This document shows, piece by piece, positions 3,554 to 55,037 of a stretch of DNA of 64,000 nt. The DNA comes from Candidatus Velesiimonas alkalicola (GTDB lineage Bacteria > Omnitrophota > Gorgyraeia > Velesiimonadales > Velesiimonadaceae). The DNA lies in contig NDHX01000001.1 in NCBI GenBank assembly GCA_013626165.1, positions 36,817 through 100,816 on the forward strand, written 5' to 3'. Both the position numbers and the translations under genes were made by a program. The number at the start of each line of letters is the position of its first letter. Position 1 is the stretch's first letter. The notes beneath the pieces are model-generated. The model made no database searches. It was not told the DNA's origin and was given only the letters and a program-made list of their open reading frames with translations.

Positions 3554-4024
3554 ATGAATAAAATTTATAACAAACAAAACAATGCCCTTCTTATAAGCAT
3601 GGGTGTCTCATTTTTTGTAGACAGGATAACAAAATATATAGTTTTAAAAACTCTTGGGGAAAAAGTTTTTTATTTTGGTTTTATAGAGTTGATGATTGTA
3701 AAAAATACCGGGGCCGCATTTGGAATTCTTGAAGAAAATACCATTGCTCTTGGTGTTCTTGGAATACTTGTATTGGTTTTTTTCTTTTACCTTGTTTGTG
3801 TGGGAAGTTTTAAAAATCTTTTCTCAAAAATTTCCACAGGCGTACTGTTGGGTGGCATTATGGGAAATACCTGGGACAGAATATTTTTTAGGTTTGTTAT
3901 AGATTTTATGCACTTTCCATTTTTTCCTTTGTCCGTGTTTCAGGTATTTAATATTGCCGATATCTGTATTACCTTCGGCGCCGTGGGTCTTGTAATAGAT
4001 AGTTTAAGAGGAAAAAAGTTATGA
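3554..4024 (+). CDS. lspA: Lipoprotein signal peptidase (signal peptidase II)
   Basis: Four predicted transmembrane segments plus the conserved NTGAAFG and FNIADxxI motifs. Confidence 0.85.
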   Translation: MNKIYNKQNNALLISMGVSFFVDRITKYIVLKTLGEKVFYFGFIELMIVKNTGAAFGILEENTIALGVLGILVLVFFFYLVCVGSFKNLFSKISTGVLLGGIMGNTWDRIFFRFVIDFMHFPFFPLSVFQVFNIADICITFGAVGLVIDSLRGKKL

Positions 4025-4752
4025 GACAGATACTTTTTCATATAGGACCTTTTGCAGTATATAGTTATGGTCTTTTTTTGGCTATAGGTATCTTCCTCGC
4101 TATGGCTGTCATAAAAAAATTCTCAAGAGTAAGTCCCTCAATAGTAAATTCCCTTTCAATATGGACTGTAATAGGAGGAATAATTGGAGCAAGACTTTTT
4201 TATGTGTTTCTTAATATTGCATATTATATTCAAAGTCCGCTTGAAGTTTTTGCAATACATAAAGGAGGGCTTGTCCTTTACGGAGGTATTGCGGGTGGCC
4301 TTATCTTGGGTTTTATATTTTGTAAAATAAGAAAATTAAACTTCTGGCAAATTTTAGATGATGTTGCAATGGGTCTTCCTCTTGGCATGGCATCTGGAAG
4401 ACTCGGCTGTTTTTTAAATGGGTGTTGTTATGGGAAAGAAACACAGGTTCTCTGGGCGGTAAAATATCCGGACATCCTGTATAAAGTACACCCTGTTCAG
4501 ATTTATGAGGCGTTGCTTCTTGTCTTTCTTTTCTTTGTTATTTATGGATTTAGAAAAGCATTTAAGGCAAAAATCAGAGGAGATGTATTTCTTTTATGTA
4601 TTATTTTTTATGCAATCATAAGATTTTTTATGGAATTTTTAAGAGGCGACCACCCTGAAGGAGTTTCAGGTCTGTTCCAGATTATAAGTATTTTTATCAT
4701 AGTATCATTTACAGGTATAATGCTCTACAGGCATGGAACACAACGAGGATAA
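4021..4752 (+). CDS. lgt: Prolipoprotein diacylglyceryl transferase
   Basis: Polytopic membrane protein with the Lgt signature GRLGCFLNGCCYGK. Its start overlaps the lspA stop by 4 nt. Confidence 0.9.
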   Translation: MRQILFHIGPFAVYSYGLFLAIGIFLAMAVIKKFSRVSPSIVNSLSIWTVIGGIIGARLFYVFLNIAYYIQSPLEVFAIHKGGLVLYGGIAGGLILGFIFCKIRKLNFWQILDDVAMGLPLGMASGRLGCFLNGCCYGKETQVLWAVKYPDILYKVHPVQIYEALLLVFLFFVIYGFRKAFKAKIRGDVFLLCIIFYAIIRFFMEFLRGDHPEGVSGLFQIISIFIIVSFTGIMLYRHGTQRG

Positions 4753-21189: not shown

Positions 21190-21266
21190 TGGCGTGCCCG
21201 GGGAGACTTGAACTCCCAACCATTGGGTTCGAAGCCCACTACTCTATCCTGTTGAGCTACGGGCAC
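21190..21266 (-). tRNA. tRNA-Arg (putative anticodon TCG)
   Basis: On the minus strand, a 7-bp acceptor stem GTGCCCG/CGGGCAC, T-arm GGGAG-TTCAAGT-CTCCC, anticodon loop CTTCGAA and 3' GCCA, 77 nt in all. The anticodon stem has one G-A mismatch, so the anticodon assignment is moderately confident. Confidence 0.75.
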
Positions 21267-32593: not shown

Positions 32594-33420
32594 TTCAAAC
32601 TCCAATTAATGTTGTCCAAGAGGGAACGGGGCTTCTTTCTGATGTAGATGGAATAAAAAATCCTGAACAGGAGGCCGCTTTTTTATTCAGAGAATTGTTT
32701 GGAGAAGAATATTGTTTTTTTGAGGGAGAAATTTTAAAATCCCGTTATTCTAAATATATTGAATATATAAATAAAAGAAGAGCTCTTTACCCTATCCAAT
32801 ATATAACCGGAAAGGCATATTTTGATGATATAATTTATGAGGTTGGCGAGGGAGTTTTTATACCGAGGCAGGATACAGAATTACTTATAGAAGAAGCAGT
32901 AAGGGTTTATAAAGGCGGTAACATACTTGATATATGCACAGGCTGTGGCAATATAGCCATTAGTCTTGCAAAAAGATTTAAGGAAAGCAGAATATTTGCA
33001 ACTGATATATCACAGAAGGCAATCTCTTGTGCAAAAAAAAATGCACACAGGATCCTTCCCTGTTATGATATAAGATGGATGTGTACAAATTTGTGGAATG
33101 GAATAAGCAATACAAAATTTTCTCTTATTGTCTCAAATCCGCCTTACCTTTCATCAAAGGATTTGTTAAATATTCCGGATAATGTCAAAAAAGAACCCAT
33201 AACAGCATTATATGGCGGGAAAAACGGGTGTGTAATCATTAAAAGAATAATAAAAAAGGCATGGCAGATGTTAGAAGACGGCGGTTATATTCTGATTGAG
33301 ATAGGAGATAATCACAAAATAGATGTTTTAAGTATGGCAGAAGGAACAAAACGGTACAAAAGATTTTATACAATAAAAAATTTATTCGGTATTGACAGGA
33401 TATTGTGCTTACGGGGCTGA
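32590..33420 (+). CDS. prmC: Release factor glutamine N5-methyltransferase
   Basis: NPPY motif (VSNPPYL) and SAM-binding DICTGCG. Overlaps the prfA stop. Confidence 0.85.
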   Translation: MIQTPINVVQEGTGLLSDVDGIKNPEQEAAFLFRELFGEEYCFFEGEILKSRYSKYIEYINKRRALYPIQYITGKAYFDDIIYEVGEGVFIPRQDTELLIEEAVRVYKGGNILDICTGCGNIAISLAKRFKESRIFATDISQKAISCAKKNAHRILPCYDIRWMCTNLWNGISNTKFSLIVSNPPYLSSKDLLNIPDNVKKEPITALYGGKNGCVIIKRIIKKAWQMLEDGGYILIEIGDNHKIDVLSMAEGTKRYKRFYTIKNLFGIDRILCLRG

Positions 33421-33424
33421 ATTT

Positions 33425-34687
33425 ATGGATAAATTTGTCATAGAAGGTGGGTATGAACTAAAGGGAAGTATTCAGGTAAGCGGCTCAAAAAATTCTGCTC
33501 TTCCAATACTTGCTGCAACACTTCTTACAAATGAACCGTGTGTTATAGAAAATGTTCCTAATCTGAAAGACACCCGCTCTATGATAAAACTTTTAAAGGG
33601 GCTTGGTGCAGATATTCAATGGACAGGAACAACCATAATGGTTCATTCAGGTGAAGATATAGGAACAGAGGCTCCTTATGAGATTGTCCGAGAGATGAGA
33701 GCATCGTTCTGTGTTCTTGGACCTATTCTTGCAAGAAAAAAAACAGCCAGAGTATCTTTTCCTGGTGGGTGTATTATAGGAGCAAGACCTGTTGACCTGC
33801 ATCTTAAGGGAATGTCTTTACTTGGTGCAGATATAAAAATAGAAGACGGTTATGTTGTTGCAAATACAAAAGGATTAAGGGGTTCACGGATATATCTTGC
33901 AGGAGCCTACGGCTCGTCTGTTCTTGCAACAGCAAATGTTATGATGGCGGCAAGTCTTGCAAAAGGCACCACACTTATAGAAAACGCGGCTTCTGAACCG
34001 GAGGTTGCCGACCTTGCAAGGTTTCTTATAAAAATGGGTGCAAAGATAAAAGGCACAGGCAACTCTATTTTAGAAATAACAGGTGTCCAACACTTAAAAG
34101 GTATCAGGCACAGGATAATACCGGACAGGATTGAGGCAGGGACATTTGCAATTGCAGGCGCAATGATTGGTGAGGATGTAAAAATAAAAAATTGTATAAA
34201 TGAGCATATGGGCGCGGTAATTAATTTTTTAAAAGAGGCAGATATTCCCTTACAAGCAAAAGAGGACTACTTATGGGTAAGGAAACCCAAATCAAGAAAA
34301 AGTGTAAGCATTACAACACTTCCTTACCCCGGTTTTCCGACAGATCTTCAGGCACAGGCAATGGCTTTAATGTCTATTACACCCGGGATATCTGTTATAT
34401 GTGAAAAAATTTTTCCGAATAGGTTTACACATGTTGCAGAACTGGGCAGGATGGGGGCAAATATAGGAATAGAGGGGCAGTCTGCTATTGTTCAGGGCGT
34501 TAAATATTTAAGCGGTGCGCCGCTTACGGTATCTGATTTAAGGGCGGGCGCAGCACTTGTCCTTGCAGGACTTGTTGCGAAAGGAAAAACAGAGGTTTTG
34601 CGTGCGTATCATCTTGATAGAGGATATGAACAGATGGAACAAAAACTCTCTAAACTCGGTGCTTGTATAAAAAGAGAAAAGGAGTGA
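33425..34687 (+). CDS. murA: UDP-N-acetylglucosamine 1-carboxyvinyltransferase
   Basis: EPSP-synthase-fold enzyme with the catalytic Cys loop (RPVDLHLKG region). Start chosen at the ATG 33425 (MDKFVIEGG). Confidence 0.9.
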   Translation: MDKFVIEGGYELKGSIQVSGSKNSALPILAATLLTNEPCVIENVPNLKDTRSMIKLLKGLGADIQWTGTTIMVHSGEDIGTEAPYEIVREMRASFCVLGPILARKKTARVSFPGGCIIGARPVDLHLKGMSLLGADIKIEDGYVVANTKGLRGSRIYLAGAYGSSVLATANVMMAASLAKGTTLIENAASEPEVADLARFLIKMGAKIKGTGNSILEITGVQHLKGIRHRIIPDRIEAGTFAIAGAMIGEDVKIKNCINEHMGAVINFLKEADIPLQAKEDYLWVRKPKSRKSVSITTLPYPGFPTDLQAQAMALMSITPGISVICEKIFPNRFTHVAELGRMGANIGIEGQSAIVQGVKYLSGAPLTVSDLRAGAALVLAGLVAKGKTEVLRAYHLDRGYEQMEQKLSKLGACIKREKE

Positions 34688-34691
34688 TCAT

Positions 34692-34943
34692 ATGGTAGTA
34701 ATAAGACTAAAAAGATTTGGAACACATAAAAGGCCGTTTTATCGTGTTATTGCTTGTGATAAACGGGTTCCAAGAGAAGGCAGGGCCCTTGAAGAACTTG
34801 GGTATTATGACCCAATTCCAAATCCTGCTGTTATAAAATTAAAACGGGATAGAATAGAATACTGGATAAGCAAAGGTGCAAAACTTTCTGAAACAGTGGA
34901 AAGTTTGTTAAAATCAAAAAATAAAACACCCATCAGTAGTTAG
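34692..34943 (+). CDS. rpsP: 30S ribosomal protein S16
   Basis: MVVIRLKRFGTHKRPFYRV N-terminus. Confidence 0.9.
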   Translation: MVVIRLKRFGTHKRPFYRVIACDKRVPREGRALEELGYYDPIPNPAVIKLKRDRIEYWISKGAKLSETVESLLKSKNKTPISS

Positions 34944-34958
34944 ATATAAGATTTCGAT

Positions 34959-35654
34959 ATGAAAATAGATATACTTACACTATTTCCGGAAATGTTTGAT
35001 TGTATTGTTAAGACATCTATGTGGAAGATTGCCATAAAAAGAAGTGCCGTAGATATACAGGTGCATAACATAAGGGATTGGACATATAATAAGCATAAAA
35101 AAGCAGACGACAGACCATATGGTGGAGGGGCTGGTATGGTTTTAAGTCCTGAACCCATATTTGAGGCAGTAGAGCAATTGCGTTCTAAAAGTCCATATCC
35201 AAAAGATGTTCATATAATTCTTACCATCCCCAGAGGGGTTCTTTTTACACAGGCACAGGCACAACATATTTCAACATATAAACATATAATTGTTTTGTGT
35301 GGACATTATGAAGGTATAGACGAAAGAGTTTCAGAGGTGCTTGTTACAGATGAAATTTCAATAGGAGATTATATTCTTACATCAGGCGAAATTGCAGGAA
35401 TGGTTATAATAGATGCAGTATTAAGGCTTGTTCCCGGTGTTTTAGGTGACCCAAATTCAAAGTACGAAGAATCATTCCTAACAGGGACATTAGAATATCC
35501 TCATTACACAAGACCTTCACAGTACAGGGGATTGAATGTGCCAGATGTTCTTCTTTCAGGTAACCATAAGGCCATAAAAAAATGGAGAAAAGAGCAGGCA
35601 GAAAAAATAACAAGAGAAAAAAGACCAGATTTGTTAAAAAAAGATAGGCCTTAA
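34959..35654 (+). CDS. trmD: tRNA (guanine37-N1)-methyltransferase
   Basis: SPOUT-fold protein with the MKIDILTLFPEMF N-terminus, 231 aa. Confidence 0.9.
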   Translation: MKIDILTLFPEMFDCIVKTSMWKIAIKRSAVDIQVHNIRDWTYNKHKKADDRPYGGGAGMVLSPEPIFEAVEQLRSKSPYPKDVHIILTIPRGVLFTQAQAQHISTYKHIIVLCGHYEGIDERVSEVLVTDEISIGDYILTSGEIAGMVIIDAVLRLVPGVLGDPNSKYEESFLTGTLEYPHYTRPSQYRGLNVPDVLLSGNHKAIKKWRKEQAEKITREKRPDLLKKDRP

Positions 35655-35695: not shown

Positions 35696-36181
35696 ATGGC
35701 AGCACTTAATAGCTTAAAAAAAATTGGTTTAATAGAAAGCGGTTTTTTAAAAAAGGATATTCCATCTTTTAGTGTAGGAGATACTGTTCGTATATACACA
35801 AAGATAACAGAAGAAGAGAAGACAAGGACACAGATGTTTGAAGGCACTGTTATAAGAAAGTCAGGGAAGTCTATATCCTCAACGGTTATATTAAGAAAAG
35901 TAATAGGTTCTGATGCAGTGGAAAAGATGTTCCCCTTACATTCTCCGAATGTTGATAAAATAATAAAGGTAAAAAGTGGCAAAGTAAGACGGGCCCGTCT
36001 TTATTACCTGAGGCACAGACTTGGAAAGGGACTAAAAATTGAAAGCTACCAGCCCACCCATGGCGTTGAAAACCTTACCCATTCCACTGGGCGGGAAGTC
36101 TTGGCCGAAAAAGGCAGAAAGAAGCAGGAATCAAAAACGGCTCCAGAGACTGCTCCAGCTGGACAGGGAACTTCGCAGTAA
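35696..36181 (+). CDS. rplS: 50S ribosomal protein L19 with an unusual ~40-aa C-terminal extension
   Basis: The L19 core ends around KGLKIES. The ORF continues 44 residues (K/E/P/A-rich) to a stop at 36181, overlapping the start of rnhB. Confidence 0.8.
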   Translation: MAALNSLKKIGLIESGFLKKDIPSFSVGDTVRIYTKITEEEKTRTQMFEGTVIRKSGKSISSTVILRKVIGSDAVEKMFPLHSPNVDKIIKVKSGKVRRARLYYLRHRLGKGLKIESYQPTHGVENLTHSTGREVLAEKGRKKQESKTAPETAPAGQGTSQ

Positions 36182-36779
36182 GGGTTATAAAACAATCGCA
36201 GGTGTAGACGAAGCAGGCAGAGGTCCTTTAGCAGGGCCTGTTGTATCTGCTGCTGTGTGTCTTCTACAAACAGATTTCACATCTGTTATTGCAGACTCAA
36301 AGCTCCTTTCAAACAAGCAGAGGCAGGAAGCATATATTGAAATACTAAGAAAAGCATATATTGGTATAGGAATAGCCGCAGAAGGCAGGATTGATGCCGA
36401 TAATATTCACAGGGCTACGCTTTATTCAATGAAAAAGGCTGTGAACAATTTAATTGTCAAGCCTGATTGTATTATTGTAGACGGTCCTTATACTCCAAAG
36501 TTTGATTTTGAAATTCCAGCCTTTCCGATAGTGTCTGGTGATAACAGGTCCTGCAGTATTGCCTGCGCCTCAATTATTGCAAAGGTTACAAGAGACTGGA
36601 TTATGGACCACTATGATAAGGTTTTCCCTTCCTACGGATTTTCAAAAAACAAAGGCTATGGAACCCCCTTCCATCTTTCTTCAATAAAAAATTTAGGGCT
36701 CTCCTCTATTCATAGAAAAACATTTATAATCAAGTCGCTTGCCGCTTCTTATGTTGTTCCTGTAAAACTTGTCCCCTGA
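36039..36779 (+). CDS. rnhB: Ribonuclease HII
   Basis: IAGVDEAGRGPLAGPVV catalytic motif, preceded by the typical LQRLLQLDRELRSKGY helix. The start codon is uncertain (ATG 36039 or 36060). Either start overlaps the rplS extension in a different frame. Confidence 0.85.
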   Translation: MKATSPPMALKTLPIPLGGKSWPKKAERSRNQKRLQRLLQLDRELRSKGYKTIAGVDEAGRGPLAGPVVSAAVCLLQTDFTSVIADSKLLSNKQRQEAYIEILRKAYIGIGIAAEGRIDADNIHRATLYSMKKAVNNLIVKPDCIIVDGPYTPKFDFEIPAFPIVSGDNRSCSIACASIIAKVTRDWIMDHYDKVFPSYGFSKNKGYGTPFHLSSIKNLGLSSIHRKTFIIKSLAASYVVPVKLVP

Positions 36780-36855: not shown

Positions 36856-37212
36856 ATGGATAACTTAGGAAAAACAGGTGAAAAACATGCGGTCAACTTC
36901 TTAAAACAAAACGGATACAGGATACAACAATGCAACTGGAAGTGTCCGTTGGGCGAGATTGATATAATTGCATCTGACAGGGATATATTGTGTATCATAG
37001 AGGTTAAGACAAGACAAGACCAAGAGTTTGGAGGGCCCTGGGATGCAATAAATGATAGGAAAAAACACAAAATATCAAAACTTGCCCAGTGGTATTGTAG
37101 CCAAAAAGGTATAAAAAACAGATCTCTCAGATTTGATGTGGTTCTGTTATGGGCAGATTCCGATGGTAAGATAACAAATACTGAACTTTTAAGAGATGCA
37201 ATCAGGTTGTAG
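36856..37212 (+). CDS. yraN: YraN-family (UPF0102) endonuclease-fold protein
   Basis: GExxAxxFLxxxGYxI ... DIIAxxxxxLxIIEVKTR signature, and the conserved rnhB-yraN linkage. Confidence 0.85.
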   Translation: MDNLGKTGEKHAVNFLKQNGYRIQQCNWKCPLGEIDIIASDRDILCIIEVKTRQDQEFGGPWDAINDRKKHKISKLAQWYCSQKGIKNRSLRFDVVLLWADSDGKITNTELLRDAIRL

Positions 37213-50967: not shown

Positions 50968-53900
50968 TTATCTAACAGAGCGAGAACCTCTATGTGCCAA
51001 GTCATCAAGAAGGCTATAAATAGTAGGAATAACAATAAGAGTAAGAAGAGTGGAGGCGAATAGGCCGCCGATGATAGCCACAGCCATAGCAGAGCGCACC
51101 TCTACGCCCATAGCCCGGCCCAGGGTAAGGGGAAGCATGGCTAACATAGTGGTGGAGGCGGTCATTAATATGGCACGTAGTCTTGTGCCCCCGGCCTGGA
51201 TAATAGCCTTATCGCGGCTTAAGCCTTTAGCCCGCAACTGGTTGATATAATCAATGAATACAATGGCATTATTGACCACAATGCCGGTAACCATAATCAT
51301 TCCAATAAAGGAGACCAGCGAGATGGTCTTACCGGTAACAAGAAGAGCCAGCACTACACCAATCAAAGCCAGAGGAACACTGAATATAATGGCAAAGGGA
51401 TGGATGAGAGATTCAAATTGGGCTGCCATAACCATATAGACCAAAAGAACAGCAAGGAGCAAAACAAAAAGAAGGCTGTAGAAAGTTTCTACCATGTCCT
51501 CATACTCACCGCCATACTCAATAAAGTAACCCGAGGGAATGGTTATTCCGGCTACCGCCCCTCGGACTTCATCCATAATCTCTCCTAAGTTGCGGCCGCT
51601 AAATTGGGCATTGACCTCAGCCACCCGCACCCTTTCCTCACGAAATATCGCTGCCGGGCCTCTTTCGGGATGAATCTTGGCCAATTCACCAAGATGAACG
51701 AGCGTCCCTCTGGGAGAAGGAACGGTAATCAGGCCAATATCGGTTAAGGTCTCTCTATCTTCTTCGCGCAGACGCAGGCGGATGTCTATCTCTTTCCCCG
51801 CCTCTCGGAAGCGGGTATCTACCCTACCCCTCATTGCCGTCTGCACGGCCTGAGCCACCTCAGCCACTCCTAATCCCTTTCGGGAAGCCCGTTCACGGTC
51901 AATTTTAATGGCAAGCTCAGGCTTTCCCGGTTTCAGGGTGGTATCTATACTATGAATTCCCTCAATACCTTTAATTCTCTCCATCACGGTCCGGGAGAGT
52001 TCTTCTAATACAACTAAATCCTTACCAAAGAGTTTTATATTTATGGGGGCCGCCCCGGCTCCACCCATTATTGCCGCCGGACCAAACTCGATAAAGGAGG
52101 TGCTTAAGCCCTCTATATCCTGGGGGAGGCGAGAGCGAATCTCAGTCAGAATCTCCTCTGTTGAACGCTTTCTCTCTTCTTTTTTTAATAGTTCTCCCAT
52201 AAGCTGGGCCTCATTCACCCCTGTAATCCCAAAACCAAAAGCTAAGTCTAACTCGCCCCCGGGATGAAGACCAACAAAGACACCTGAGGCTTCTATCTCA
52301 GGAATATCAGCAATGATTGCCTCTACTGTCTGAACTACTCTGTTTGTCTCAGGCAAAGAGGTATCTACCGGCATCCGCAGAGTCCCTATGTAAATTCCAC
52401 TGTCCATCCGGGGTATGAATTCAGTGCCGACAAGCAGGAGAAGTCCTAAACTGAGGACGAAGATAGCCGCCGCAGTAAGGATTACCTTTGCCCGATGCTT
52501 AAGTGCCAGGGCGAGAACCCTCATATATCTTTCTTTAAAACCAGCAAACCATCCGCCGGTTTCTTTTTCCTTTACAACTTTTTTTTCATTGTTTTTTAAG
52601 AGTTTGGAGGCTACCATAGGCACCAGAGTTAGGGCAACAAATAAAGAAACAATCAGGGCTGAGCCTACGGTTACTCCCAACGCTTGTGCCATTTTTCCTG
52701 CTATTCCCGTAGCATATGCCATAGGAAGAAAGACAACTACGGTAGTTAGTGTAGAGGCAGAAATAGCCATTGCTACTTCACTTGTCCCTATCTGTGCCGC
52801 TTCTTTTGGTTCCTTGCCCTCTTTAAGGTGCCGAAAGATATTTTCAATAACCACAATGGCATTATCAAGCAGCATCCCAACGGCTAATGCCAGGCCTCCT
52901 AAGGTCATCATATTTAGTGTATAACCGAGGGAGTAGATGGGGATAAAAGTAGCCAGTCCCGCCAAGGGGATAGCAAGAGCAATAGTAATTGTAGGACGAA
53001 GTTTTCGCAAGAAGAGAAAAAGGACAAATATTGCGGCCAGGCCTCCCCAGAGACCACTGCTTACCACCCCGGATATGGAAGCCCGGATAAACTTTGCCTG
53101 GTTAAAGAGTTCATGTAGTCTGATATCTGCAGGCAGGTCTTTTTTTAGCCGGATGAGCTCTTCTTCTACCCGCTGGGCAATGCGAACTGTATTGGCCCCG
53201 GATTCTCTATTTATGGCAATCAAGAGACCATCCCGCCTGTCTACCCGCGAGTGCCCACGCAACTCCTTATGGGTATCGGAAATAACGGCAATGTCCTCAA
53301 GATAGATGGGTTTTCCTTCCCTTAAGGAAACTACCGTCCTTCTTATCTCATACAGACCCTCAAATTCACCTACGGTGCGCACTAAAAATTCCCGGGGCCC
53401 TTCAATTAAGTGTCCTGCGGGAAGATTGAGATTCTCTCTTTCTAACGCTTGTGCTATCTCAAAGAGAGACAGGTTATGCGCTTCCAATCTACTTCCATCA
53501 ACCTCTACTAAAAACTCCCGCTCCAGACCTCCGAAGAGCATTACCGAGGCTACCCCCTCTATCCGCTCCAAACGAGGCTTTATAACATCATCTATTAAGT
53601 CCCTTAAGTCAAAGAGGTCGCGCTCCCCGGTAATTCCAAACATCATAATCGGCCACATCGCTAAATCAAACTTAATCACCAGAGGTCTTTTCATATCTTC
53701 GGGCAGAAAGACTTCAATAAGACTTATCGCCTCTCTCATATCCTGGGCGGCAAAGTCCAGGTTGGTCCCCCAGACAAATTCCGCCATTACTACGGAAATC
53801 CCTTCATAAGAGACGCTACGTATCTTCTTAACCCCGCTTACTGTGGCTACCACCTCTTCAATAGGCTTGGTAACCAACTCCTCCATATCCTCCGGGACCA

Positions 53901-54060
53901 CCCCGGGATAGGTACTTACCACCGAGACCATGGGGTATTCAATATCAGGGAACATATCAATGCCCAAACGACTCAGAGAAATTGCCCCCAAAAGAACAAC
54001 CACCATAATAAGCATGGTAATGGCTACGGGACGGCGGACGGAAAAATTAGGAAGAAACAT
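50968..54060 (-). CDS. RND-family efflux permease (HAE1/AcrB-like)
   Basis: 1030 aa with 12 transmembrane segments and two large periplasmic loops. Conserved AcrB N-terminus FSVRRPV... Notably higher GC than the backbone. Confidence 0.9.
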   Translation of the reverse strand: MFLPNFSVRRPVAITMLIMVVVLLGAISLSRLGIDMFPDIEYPMVSVVSTYPGVVPEDMEELVTKPIEEVVATVSGVKKIRSVSYEGISVVMAEFVWGTNLDFAAQDMREAISLIEVFLPEDMKRPLVIKFDLAMWPIMMFGITGERDLFDLRDLIDDVIKPRLERIEGVASVMLFGGLEREFLVEVDGSRLEAHNLSLFEIAQALERENLNLPAGHLIEGPREFLVRTVGEFEGLYEIRRTVVSLREGKPIYLEDIAVISDTHKELRGHSRVDRRDGLLIAINRESGANTVRIAQRVEEELIRLKKDLPADIRLHELFNQAKFIRASISGVVSSGLWGGLAAIFVLFLFLRKLRPTITIALAIPLAGLATFIPIYSLGYTLNMMTLGGLALAVGMLLDNAIVVIENIFRHLKEGKEPKEAAQIGTSEVAMAISASTLTTVVVFLPMAYATGIAGKMAQALGVTVGSALIVSLFVALTLVPMVASKLLKNNEKKVVKEKETGGWFAGFKERYMRVLALALKHRAKVILTAAAIFVLSLGLLLLVGTEFIPRMDSGIYIGTLRMPVDTSLPETNRVVQTVEAIIADIPEIEASGVFVGLHPGGELDLAFGFGITGVNEAQLMGELLKKEERKRSTEEILTEIRSRLPQDIEGLSTSFIEFGPAAIMGGAGAAPINIKLFGKDLVVLEELSRTVMERIKGIEGIHSIDTTLKPGKPELAIKIDRERASRKGLGVAEVAQAVQTAMRGRVDTRFREAGKEIDIRLRLREEDRETLTDIGLITVPSPRGTLVHLGELAKIHPERGPAAIFREERVRVAEVNAQFSGRNLGEIMDEVRGAVAGITIPSGYFIEYGGEYEDMVETFYSLLFVLLLAVLLVYMVMAAQFESLIHPFAIIFSVPLALIGVVLALLVTGKTISLVSFIGMIMVTGIVVNNAIVFIDYINQLRAKGLSRDKAIIQAGGTRLRAILMTASTTMLAMLPLTLGRAMGVEVRSAMAVAIIGGLFASTLLTLIVIPTIYSLLDDLAHRGSRSVR

Positions 54061-54128
54061 TTTTAAACCTCCGGTTTAAACCAAAAATCCAAACGGCGAA
54101 TCTCAAATGACAAAATCCAAATCATTTG

Positions 54129-55037
54129 TCATTTGACATTTACCCTTGCTCCATCTTTAAGACCGAAATGGCCTCCAATGATTACCCTATCTTGAGGCTC
54201 AACCCCTGAGACAATCTCCATACTATCTTTGGTAACTATTCCGGTCTGTACTTTTCTTATTTTAGCCACGGAGTCCTCTACTACATAGACTATTTCCTGG
54301 CTATCTTTTACTAAAACGGCATCCCGGGGAACAATGAGCACATCTTGACGCTTATTAGTAATAAGTTTTACCCGGGCAAACATCCCTGGTTTTAGTTTAT
54401 GTTCCGGATTATCAATAGTTATTTCTACCGGCGCCCGGCGCAAGACAATATCAACCACTGGACTTACGATGAAAACCTCCCCCTTAAAGACCTCCTCGGG
54501 ATAGGCATCCAGGCGCACCTCGGCATTTTGACCTCTAACTATTTTTGGCAAATCCCTCTCCGGCACATCTACCCGAATTTTAACCCTATCCATATTTATT
54601 ATAAGAGCTAGCGGGTTCTGGGAAGTGACACTCATTCCTCTATCTATATAGACTCTGCCTACCACTCCATCAATGGGCGACTCTACAGGAGCCTTCTCAA
54701 ATTCAAAACCTACTACATCGCGGTCAATAAGAAAAAGGGTATCTCCTTTCTTTGCTAAATCACCCTCTCTGACGAGTTTTTCTACAATCTTACCAGGGAC
54801 TTTAGGAAAAATAGTTACCTCATCCTCAGCCTTTATGTCACCCACAAAAGAGAGTGTCTCTCTCATAGTGCCTTTTTCTACCTCAGCCACCTTCACATAA
54901 ACAGGCATTCTTTCCTTCTCAATAACCTCTTCTCCTTCCCTGCCACAACCGGTTAAGAACAGAGAACAGAGGGCAGAGAAGAGAAAACAGAAAAACCTAA
55001 CTTTTGATTTCTGACTTCTAATGTGTAGAGTAGACAT
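54129..55037 (-). CDS. RND efflux periplasmic adaptor (membrane fusion protein, HlyD/AcrA family)
   Basis: Lipobox LTGC, with biotinyl-lipoyl and beta-barrel MFP domains. Confidence 0.85.
   Translation of the reverse strand: MSTLHIRSQKSKVRFFCFLFSALCSLFLTGCGREGEEVIEKERMPVYVKVAEVEKGTMRETLSFVGDIKAEDEVTIFPKVPGKIVEKLVREGDLAKKGDTLFLIDRDVVGFEFEKAPVESPIDGVVGRVYIDRGMSVTSQNPLALIINMDRVKIRVDVPERDLPKIVRGQNAEVRLDAYPEEVFKGEVFIVSPVVDIVLRRAPVEITIDNPEHKLKPGMFARVKLITNKRQDVLIVPRDAVLVKDSQEIVYVVEDSVAKIRKVQTGIVTKDSMEIVSGVEPQDRVIIGGHFGLKDGARVNVK

Follow-up and report, generated by a model that had tools for sequence, protein, structure and literature searches.

A long out-of-frame overlap of rplS and rnhB, probably arisen by stop loss, in Candidatus Velesiimonas alkalicola and related bacteria

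Introduction

Same-strand overlaps of 1 or 4 nucleotides (nt) between neighbouring bacterial genes are routine. Here we describe a long one, between rplS, encoding ribosomal protein L19, and rnhB, encoding RNase HII, in 64,000 nt of DNA from Candidatus Velesiimonas alkalicola (assembly GCA_013626165.1, contig NDHX01000001.1, positions 36,817 to 100,816 of the forward strand; hereafter the window, numbered from its first nucleotide). A survey of 338 genomes found no real co-directional overlap >60 bp, the longest real case being holD/rimI at <60 bp, and proposed flagging such cases as errors (Palleja et al. 2008, PMC2478687). Co-directional overlaps have also been modelled as the outcome of upstream stop loss, that is, of 3' elongation (PMC3887535). 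The rplS-rnhB overlap resembles the stop-loss overlaps of these two studies: the genes lie on the same strand in different frames, the 3' extension runs into the next operon gene, and a ribosome-binding site is embedded in the upstream gene. Unlike the overlaps of PMC2478687, it measures 116-143 nt (up to 80 nt in relatives), is conserved in diverged orthologues and extends over the codons for a structured helix of RnhB.

A ribosomal-protein gene and a ribonuclease gene also share DNA in Thermus, where rpmH (L34) is nested in rnpA (RNase P protein) and the two have a common AUGGAUG initiation region (Feltens et al. 2003, as related in PMC9841429). As far as that account extends, the Thermus pair and the present one have in common two housekeeping genes of these kinds, read in two frames and conserved within a clade. 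The Thermus case, according to the same account, is a demonstrated nesting of a small gene, whereas the overlap described here is partial, 3' end over 5' end, with starts ~340 nt apart, and is described from sequence. A further parallel is overprinting, best known from viruses, in which the newer reading is restricted, disordered and of a composition largely dictated by the older frame, as the Ala/Pro/Thr/Ser/Glu composition of the L19 tail described below would be; here, no new gene is created; what is gained is a tail on a universal protein that already existed, and the setting is a cellular housekeeping operon. Finally, adjacent genes may be coupled by termination-reinitiation at ATGA or TGATG junctions (PMC6728339, PMC10666635), with a steep fall-off within ~14-38 nt (PMC10666635). 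Like such pairs, rplS and rnhB are adjacent operon genes whose translation would be physically linked. Stop and start neither overlap nor lie a few nt apart here, as they do in reinitiation-coupled pairs, the rnhB start lying 116-143 nt before the rplS stop, and ribosome occlusion or independent initiation is more plausible. A search of the literature ('bacterium Unc6', rplS+rnhB overlap, bL19 C-terminal extension, Omnitrophota overlapping genes) yielded no account of the overlap; three public gene-call sets already hold it implicitly.

Results

The rplS gene occupies 35696..36181 of the + strand, with its TAA stop at 36179-36181, and rnhB follows at 36039..36779 (+) in the rplS +1 frame. The span shared by the two genes is set by the rnhB start (preferred TTG 36039, alternatives ATG 36060 and TTG 36066) and comes to 116-143 nt, close to the ~120-140 nt, including the codons of an RnhB helix, proposed in a first-pass annotation of this DNA. 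That annotation had also called the segment GC-richer than its surroundings, and the GC content at 36039-36181 is indeed 0.524 against 0.378 for the window (top 1.1% among 143-nt windows). The rplS product of 161 amino acids (aa), which has an identical database record ('50S ribosomal protein L19 [bacterium Unc6]'), belongs to the bL19 family by full-length domain match above curated cutoff: PF01245 matches with E=9e-38 and 129.1 bits (cutoff 22) over profile positions 5-109 of 111, and TIGR01024 with 122.6 bits (cutoff 90.7). The Pfam and NCBIfam models both cover only aa 12-116, and the open reading frame (ORF) runs on to codon 161, which bears out the earlier count of 44 extra codons past the domain. 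These codons (SYQPTHGV...APAGQGTSQ) lie at 36047..36178 (+), one base ahead of the rnhB frame. The product departs from the usual bL19 size of ~113-116 aa, with an end ~14 residues past the LYYL motif, a size that is typical of the family and not defining: 56 residues follow LYYL in the window L19, compared with 14 in ordinary L19 and 27-36 in the Omnitrophota-type group. The tail is predicted to be disordered; the AlphaFold2 model is confident in the L19 core, and its predicted local distance difference test score (pLDDT) is <50 at aa 110-148 and 154-161. Tryptic peptides of the tail are EVLAEK and, at the C-terminus, TAPETAPAGQGTSQ. Among cluster representatives of L19 from unrelated lineages, many are 140-210 aa long and many have added length past the matched region. 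The bL19 C-terminus seems to be generally tolerant of added disordered sequence; a long L19 is by itself unsurprising, and the notable part is the long conserved dual coding.

RnhB was identified as RNase HII by a full-length domain match above cutoff together with the four catalytic acidic residues. PF01351 matches aa 54-230 (profile 1-197 of 199), NF000595 scores 201 bits (cutoff 167), and D57, E58, D148 and D168 are unchanged across 20 aligned sequences. AlphaFold2 predicts the standard RNase HII fold with a mean pLDDT of 84.5 and with aa 1-19 disordered. The N-terminal helix (aa 25-47, KAERSRNQKRLQRLLQLDRELRS) is encoded at 36111..36179 (+), wholly within the overlap; it is modelled as a block with pLDDT 74-93 that packs onto the RNase HII fold. 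Its 'LQRLLQLDRELRSKGY' segment lines up with the N-terminal helix found in RNase HII from Omnitrophota and Firmicutes, and the NF000594 match begins at aa 24.

The codons of the catalytic Asp57-Glu58 pair (36207..36212, +) begin 25 nt past the end of the rplS stop. Upstream of them, the only ATG, GTG or TTG codons in the rnhB frame are those at 36039, 36060 and 36066; the next is GTG 36255 (codon 73). Because this GTG lies past the catalytic Asp-Glu, rnhB must start at one of the three, and the earlier statement that rnhB has no canonical start past the rplS stop is upheld. Seven nt before TTG 36039, within the rplS codons Gly-Lys-Gly, lies a Shine-Dalgarno (SD)-like GGAAAGGGA (36023..36031, +), a putative ribosome-binding site for rnhB. 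Scored against a generic anti-SD (window background mean -2.4 kcal/mol), the duplex energy was -5.0 kcal/mol before TTG 36039, and -0.1 and +1.2 kcal/mol for the other two starts. The context of TTG 36039, AAAAATTGAAAG, is the same as that of the rnhB start in the closest relative, L001 (RnhB 67% identical), and the two positions are homologous. In relatives, the rnhB starts are preceded by purine-rich L19 codons (KVEEK...). TTG 36039, the sole candidate with SD-like pairing, is most likely the best rnhB start.

The database rnhB call begins at GTG 36255..36257 (+) and specifies a 174-aa product without the catalytic Asp-Glu; we judged this start wrong. The gene table of the same-species assembly GCA_002581605.1 (L003) places rnhB at 3560-4084, equivalent to window 36255-36779. 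On JGI contig Ga0209514_10000021 (L091 1896-2548), the rnhB ORF is intact and no rnhB is called. Public rnhB gene calls are mishandled because of the overlap with rplS.

Searching for homologues of the window L19 gave two relatives in which the tail is likewise extended, P0002 (140 aa) and P0003 (141 aa). When the L19 C-terminus and tail together served as a profile, 118 more clusters came up, most of them 127-136 aa in total length. The tailed proteins end like ...KVEEKIEHAxxxxxxPPREEAK (a ...REExx terminus in 96/118), and those clusters that carry a source name are labelled Candidatus Omnitrophica/Omnitrophota. We read the junction DNA in nine relatives (L001, L002, L007, L011, L013 and L090-L093), in which identity over the L19 C-terminal region is down to 36-67%. 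All nine have rnhB in the L19 +1 frame, so the comparison of orthologous loci suggested in the first-pass annotation recovers the same out-of-frame arrangement in diverged genomes. In 10/10 long-overlap loci, the window included, the catalytic Asp codon follows the first base of the L19 stop (TAA/TAG) by 28 or 31 nt. The overlap is 56 nt in L007 and L090 and 68 nt in L002 and L091, each of which has one possible start only. It is start-dependent in L092 (44-56 nt), L093 (50-80 nt), L001 (32-80 nt), L011 (38-65 nt) and L013 (29-56 nt). Gene callers have themselves produced L19/RNase HII overlaps of 50-56 nt in three contigs with the synteny murA-rpsP-trmD-rplS-rnhB, namely two NCBI assemblies, one named Candidatus Omnitrophica and one Candidatus Omnitrophota, and one JGI metagenome contig.

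A neighbouring rnhB group (L014, L016, L022, L033, L081 and others) is without the overlap and has ordinary junctions of -33 to +8 nt. In a rough neighbour-joining tree of RnhB, the overlap loci fall in two adjacent groups beside this group; the resolution of the tree is too poor to tell a single origin of the overlap from two. A search for close relatives among GTDB species genomes gave one distant Wallbacteria match only, with a short L19 tail and no rnhB motif within ~900 nt downstream. At L010 (398-488), CAT-GAC (His-Asp) replaces CAC-GAG, and the synonymous T makes a TGA in the L19 frame that shortens the tail by five codons; this locus represents a partial reversion in nature or, alternatively, an intermediate state. 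In L008 (295-951) and L009 (218-874), rnhB groups with the overlap clade and rplS is no longer in front. The L19-like frame nevertheless remains open there over ~22 codons and ends at the customary -31 position, a state suggestive of recent rearrangement.

We then examined the overlap for signs of constraint in both frames; samples in all of these analyses are small. In each L19 codon, the first base is the wobble base of one rnhB codon and the other two open the next. A Leu codon of rnhB (CTN) is accordingly read in the L19 tail as Ala, Pro, Thr or Ser, and His-Glu-Lys/Arg as Arg-Glu-Glu; a T-ending rnhB codon before a codon starting with AA, AG or GA would make a stop in the L19 frame. The GC content at third codon positions of rnhB is 0.60 in the overlap and 0.32 in the rest of rnhB and the long ORFs of the window, and the T content at these positions is 0.13 in the overlap against a background of 0.34. 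The raised GC content of the overlap would be a by-product of dual coding, T-ending rnhB codons being avoided before A/G-starting codons, where they would create L19-frame stops. When the RnhB sequence was resampled synonymously with the codon usage of this genome, 1.6-1.8% of trials kept the L19 frame open as far as the actual stop, and 1.0% did so for L001 with its TTG start; Fisher's combined test on frame openness over 10 loci gave p=0.036. Where overlap loci have a His codon before Glu, it is CAC (6/6). The conserved Glu codon is GAG in 7/7 loci of the main overlap clade, compared with 9/27 non-overlap loci of similar GC (Fisher p about 0.002, by our count), a choice that keeps Glu instead of Lys in the L19 tail and is not required for stop avoidance. 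Substitutions in the overlap, counted over five independent pairs, are spread flatly over the three rnhB codon positions (29/34/36), whereas directly downstream the same pairs have the usual third-position excess (59/39/138; chi-square p=1.8e-4). As a control, the clade without the overlap has a normal substitution pattern in the same helix. Both codon choice and the substitution patterns are consistent with constraint in the two frames.

The features expected of an overprinted region, a newer frame that is phylogenetically restricted, disordered and of a composition dictated by the older frame, were all found. A matching tail was found only in the L19 clusters of the profile search, and the RnhB helix occurs also in Firmicutes. 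The rnhB reading is the older of the two, and the L19 tail is overprinted on it.

Compared with L001, the window has a lineage-specific insertion of 63 nt (21 codons; approximately 36047..36109, +), visible as a 21-residue gap in the protein alignment and private to this species. It lies directly past the AAAAATTGAAAG start context common to the two loci, is in frame for both genes and lengthens both the L19 tail and the RnhB N-terminus, for an overlap of 143 nt versus 80 nt in L001. The window is the longest case of the overlap because of this insertion. Its GC content is 0.571, and it is predicted to be disordered in both proteins. The insertion occurs once in the window, and its derivation from a repeat or mobile element was rejected. 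A tandem duplication of the rplS 3' end was likewise rejected: despite a suggestive MAFFT gap placement, self-comparison identity was below background.

Could the overlap be an artefact? If one A were missing from the run 36034-36038, the L19 of a corrected sequence with A6 would end ...GLKN-TGA at 36040-36042. A -1 frame TGA does stand directly after the A5 run, with the usual 4-nt overlap with the TTG start; the resulting 116-aa L19 would be of ordinary length, and Palleja et al. 2008 (PMC2478687) called all co-directional overlaps >60 bp errors, 3' extensions included. However, the first-pass annotation had proposed checking for an indel that restores a normal rplS stop, and none was found in three further assemblies of the same species (NCBI GCA_002581605.1, Logan SRR8194967 and Logan DRR093103; 1.6-4.8 kb aligned). 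At least two other sequencing runs are represented among these; they align to the window without a single gap at 99.6-99.7% identity, and differ by single-nucleotide polymorphisms (SNPs) from it and among themselves. L001, moreover, has the same AAAAATTGAAAG and frame relation, and eight further relatives without the A-run also read through. Only one SNP, 36073 C>T, falls inside the overlap; it is silent for L19 and replaces Thr by Ile in RnhB. Logan SRR8194967 (L004) also has three neighbouring mismatches at window 36533-36535 (GTC>AGA), which as a block change Val-Ser of RnhB to Val-Asp and are either a multinucleotide variant or a local assembly error. We regard a missing base as extremely improbable. 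On two marks of a genuine overlap given by Palleja et al. 2008, no downstream start yields a product of orthologue-like length, and the extended end of the upstream gene is common to orthologues with no private frameshift. On a third mark, translation of both overlapping ends, the codon and substitution signatures bear only indirectly. As judged by these comparisons, the rplS-rnhB overlap is confirmed as a genuine long dual-coding stretch and not a sequencing error.

A genuine sequence could still be read otherwise. The overlap would be shorter or absent if rnhB began at CTG 36150 (32-nt overlap) or at GTG 36255, or if it were decaying. CTG 36150 is exactly 19 codons before the Asp, where non-overlap relatives start rnhB with ATG or GTG; the NCBI-derived gene call begins at the equivalent of 36255; RnhB aa 1-19 are predicted to be disordered; and ATG 36060 and TTG 36066 are without an SD-like sequence. 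CTG starts, however, are rare and weak in bacteria, and this one has no SD-like sequence either (-1.7 kcal/mol). L002 and L007 also have Leu at -19, together with a single canonical start 28-32 codons before the Asp, and a start at the CTG would still leave 32 nt of dual coding. Starting at 36255 would remove the invariant Asp57-Glu58, and ATG 36060 was chosen by another gene caller on an independent contig. Against decay, the rest of rnhB is intact, its Pfam match is full-length and the strain SNPs are mostly synonymous. Together, these variants are unlikely. Very improbable, too, is a programmed -1 frameshift, in which tRNA-Lys would slip on A-AAA (36034-36037) and most ribosomes would end at TGA 36040-36042, giving a 116-aa L19 with the 161-aa form as a minor product. 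The A5 run is followed by an out-of-frame TGA that overlaps the candidate rnhB TTG and would allow classic termination-reinitiation coupling, the SD-like GGAAAGGGA stands upstream, and in L001 and L002, too, NTGA is closely preceded by a Lys codon within an A-run. But of the heptamer, stimulatory structure and conservation that mark dnaX-like frameshifting, none was found. The rplS frame contains no X-XXY-YYZ heptamer; folding of the 181 nt downstream is no more stable than that of shuffles (z=+1.16), and Rfam gives no match at the junction at E<=1 apart from noise; and L007, L090 and L092 start rnhB with ATG-CCC or ATG-CGC without a TGA. NTG-A arises trivially from a Lys second codon, and the constraint signatures run through the whole tail. 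The same fold and Rfam results, with neither inverted nor tandem repeats in the GC-rich stretch, led us to reject an RNA element (frameshift stimulator, leader or attenuator). An internal promoter or terminator at the junction was also rejected, pattern counts being no higher than in shuffles.

The ORF list and profile matches give the + strand gene order murA (33392-34687), rpsP (34692-34943), trmD (34959-35654), rplS, rnhB and a UPF0102/YraN gene (36856-37212). The order murA-rpsP-trmD-rplS-rnhB is repeated in related Omnitrophota-type contigs. In the window (34692-35654) and in L001 and L090-L093, trmD follows rpsP directly, with neither rimM nor a KH-domain gene between them. The trmD product of L001 (3264-4079) has 271 aa versus 231 aa in the window, the surplus being a charged 40-residue C-terminal extension. 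Elsewhere in the window, positions 50968-55037 (- strand) encode an AcrB-family RND transporter (1030 aa) and a HlyD-type membrane-fusion partner. Both lie in the window's longest GC-rich tract, where several 143-nt windows reach >=0.52 versus 0.378 overall, and the region may have been horizontally acquired. An Rfam scan of the window found one tRNA (21193-21266) only and no rRNA.

Discussion

We consider it likely that rplS and rnhB form an old co-directional out-of-frame overlap of two housekeeping genes in one operon, which arose by loss of the rplS stop. The observations that carry this reading are the ORF anatomy, the zero indels, the conserved arrangement and the codon and substitution signatures. 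The first-pass annotation had spoken of dual coding of unusual length in essential genes. Dual coding has stood; 'essential' is inapt for rnhB, a housekeeping gene that is usually not essential. Nor is the window an isolated case, shorter forms of the overlap being present at six sequenced loci from Omnitrophota-type relatives.

In an ancestor of the Omnitrophota-type group, an rplS stop near the rnhB start would have been lost and the rnhB start would have moved upstream into rplS codons; in the main clade, the rnhB ATG lies within the codons for Glu-His-Ala of L19 (GAG CAT GCN), which follow the purine-rich codons of KVEEK. Ribosomes translating rplS would continue through the rnhB initiation region and the helix codons, one base ahead of the rnhB frame, and this read-on would give L19 a polar, disordered, overprinted C-terminal tail. 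Later, the 63-nt insertion just past the rnhB start would have lengthened both products and brought the overlap to 143 nt (minimum 116). RnhB synthesis most likely initiates independently at TTG 36039, by way of the SD-like purine run in the rplS Gly-Lys-Gly codons. Since reinitiation falls off within ~14-38 nt, independent initiation that is modulated, and probably damped, by rplS traffic is favoured over termination-reinitiation. Heavy ribosome traffic on rplS would probably hold RNase HII output low and tied to rplS translation. Mechanistically, the case is of a familiar type, in which a stop is lost, the downstream gene is overprinted and its ribosome-binding site sits inside the gene before it.

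Several points weigh against this reading. Translation of the L19 tail, the 161-aa form of L19, the N-terminus of RnhB and the start used are what we infer from sequence alone, as is any effect of the overlap on expression. The SD-like signal at TTG 36039 is modest, its -5.0 kcal/mol lying above the 5th percentile of the background (-7.0). With conservative starts, the per-locus P for frame openness is 0.1-0.6 outside two AT-rich lineages, which is weak, and by our count about one quarter of unrelated rnhB genes have the L19-like frame open by chance. Relaxed constraint on the N-terminus of RnhB could account for part of the flattening of codon periodicity. The uniformity of the 118 tailed clusters is partly ascertainment, as they were ranked with a tail-containing profile. 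The last five tail codons can be lost, as at L010, and long C-terminal extensions of L19 are apparently common in other lineages; the tail may be merely tolerated.

A stronger version of the reading would make the tail a selected lineage-specific extension, born by overprinting on rnhB and kept, with the N-terminal helix of RnhB, under two-frame purifying selection throughout a deeply diverged Omnitrophota-type group, the overlap the longest bona fide co-directional dual coding between bacterial universal housekeeping genes, and its function the setting of the RNase HII:ribosome ratio. We regard this version as possible but doubtful.

Annotation pipelines and a widely cited survey treat co-directional overlaps >~60 bp as errors, a rule that misfires here. 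The overlap, conserved at 50-143 nt between two near-universal genes, provides a natural series, from an ordinary junction through overlaps of ~30-80 nt to one of 143 nt. The series could be used to follow the stop-loss origin of dual coding, the bending of codon choice by a second frame and the birth of a disordered ribosomal-protein tail, and also the effect that translating a highly expressed gene across its start has on the output of a low-abundance enzyme. The L19 tail together with the rnhB overlap is, in addition, a simple sequence marker for the Omnitrophota-type group.

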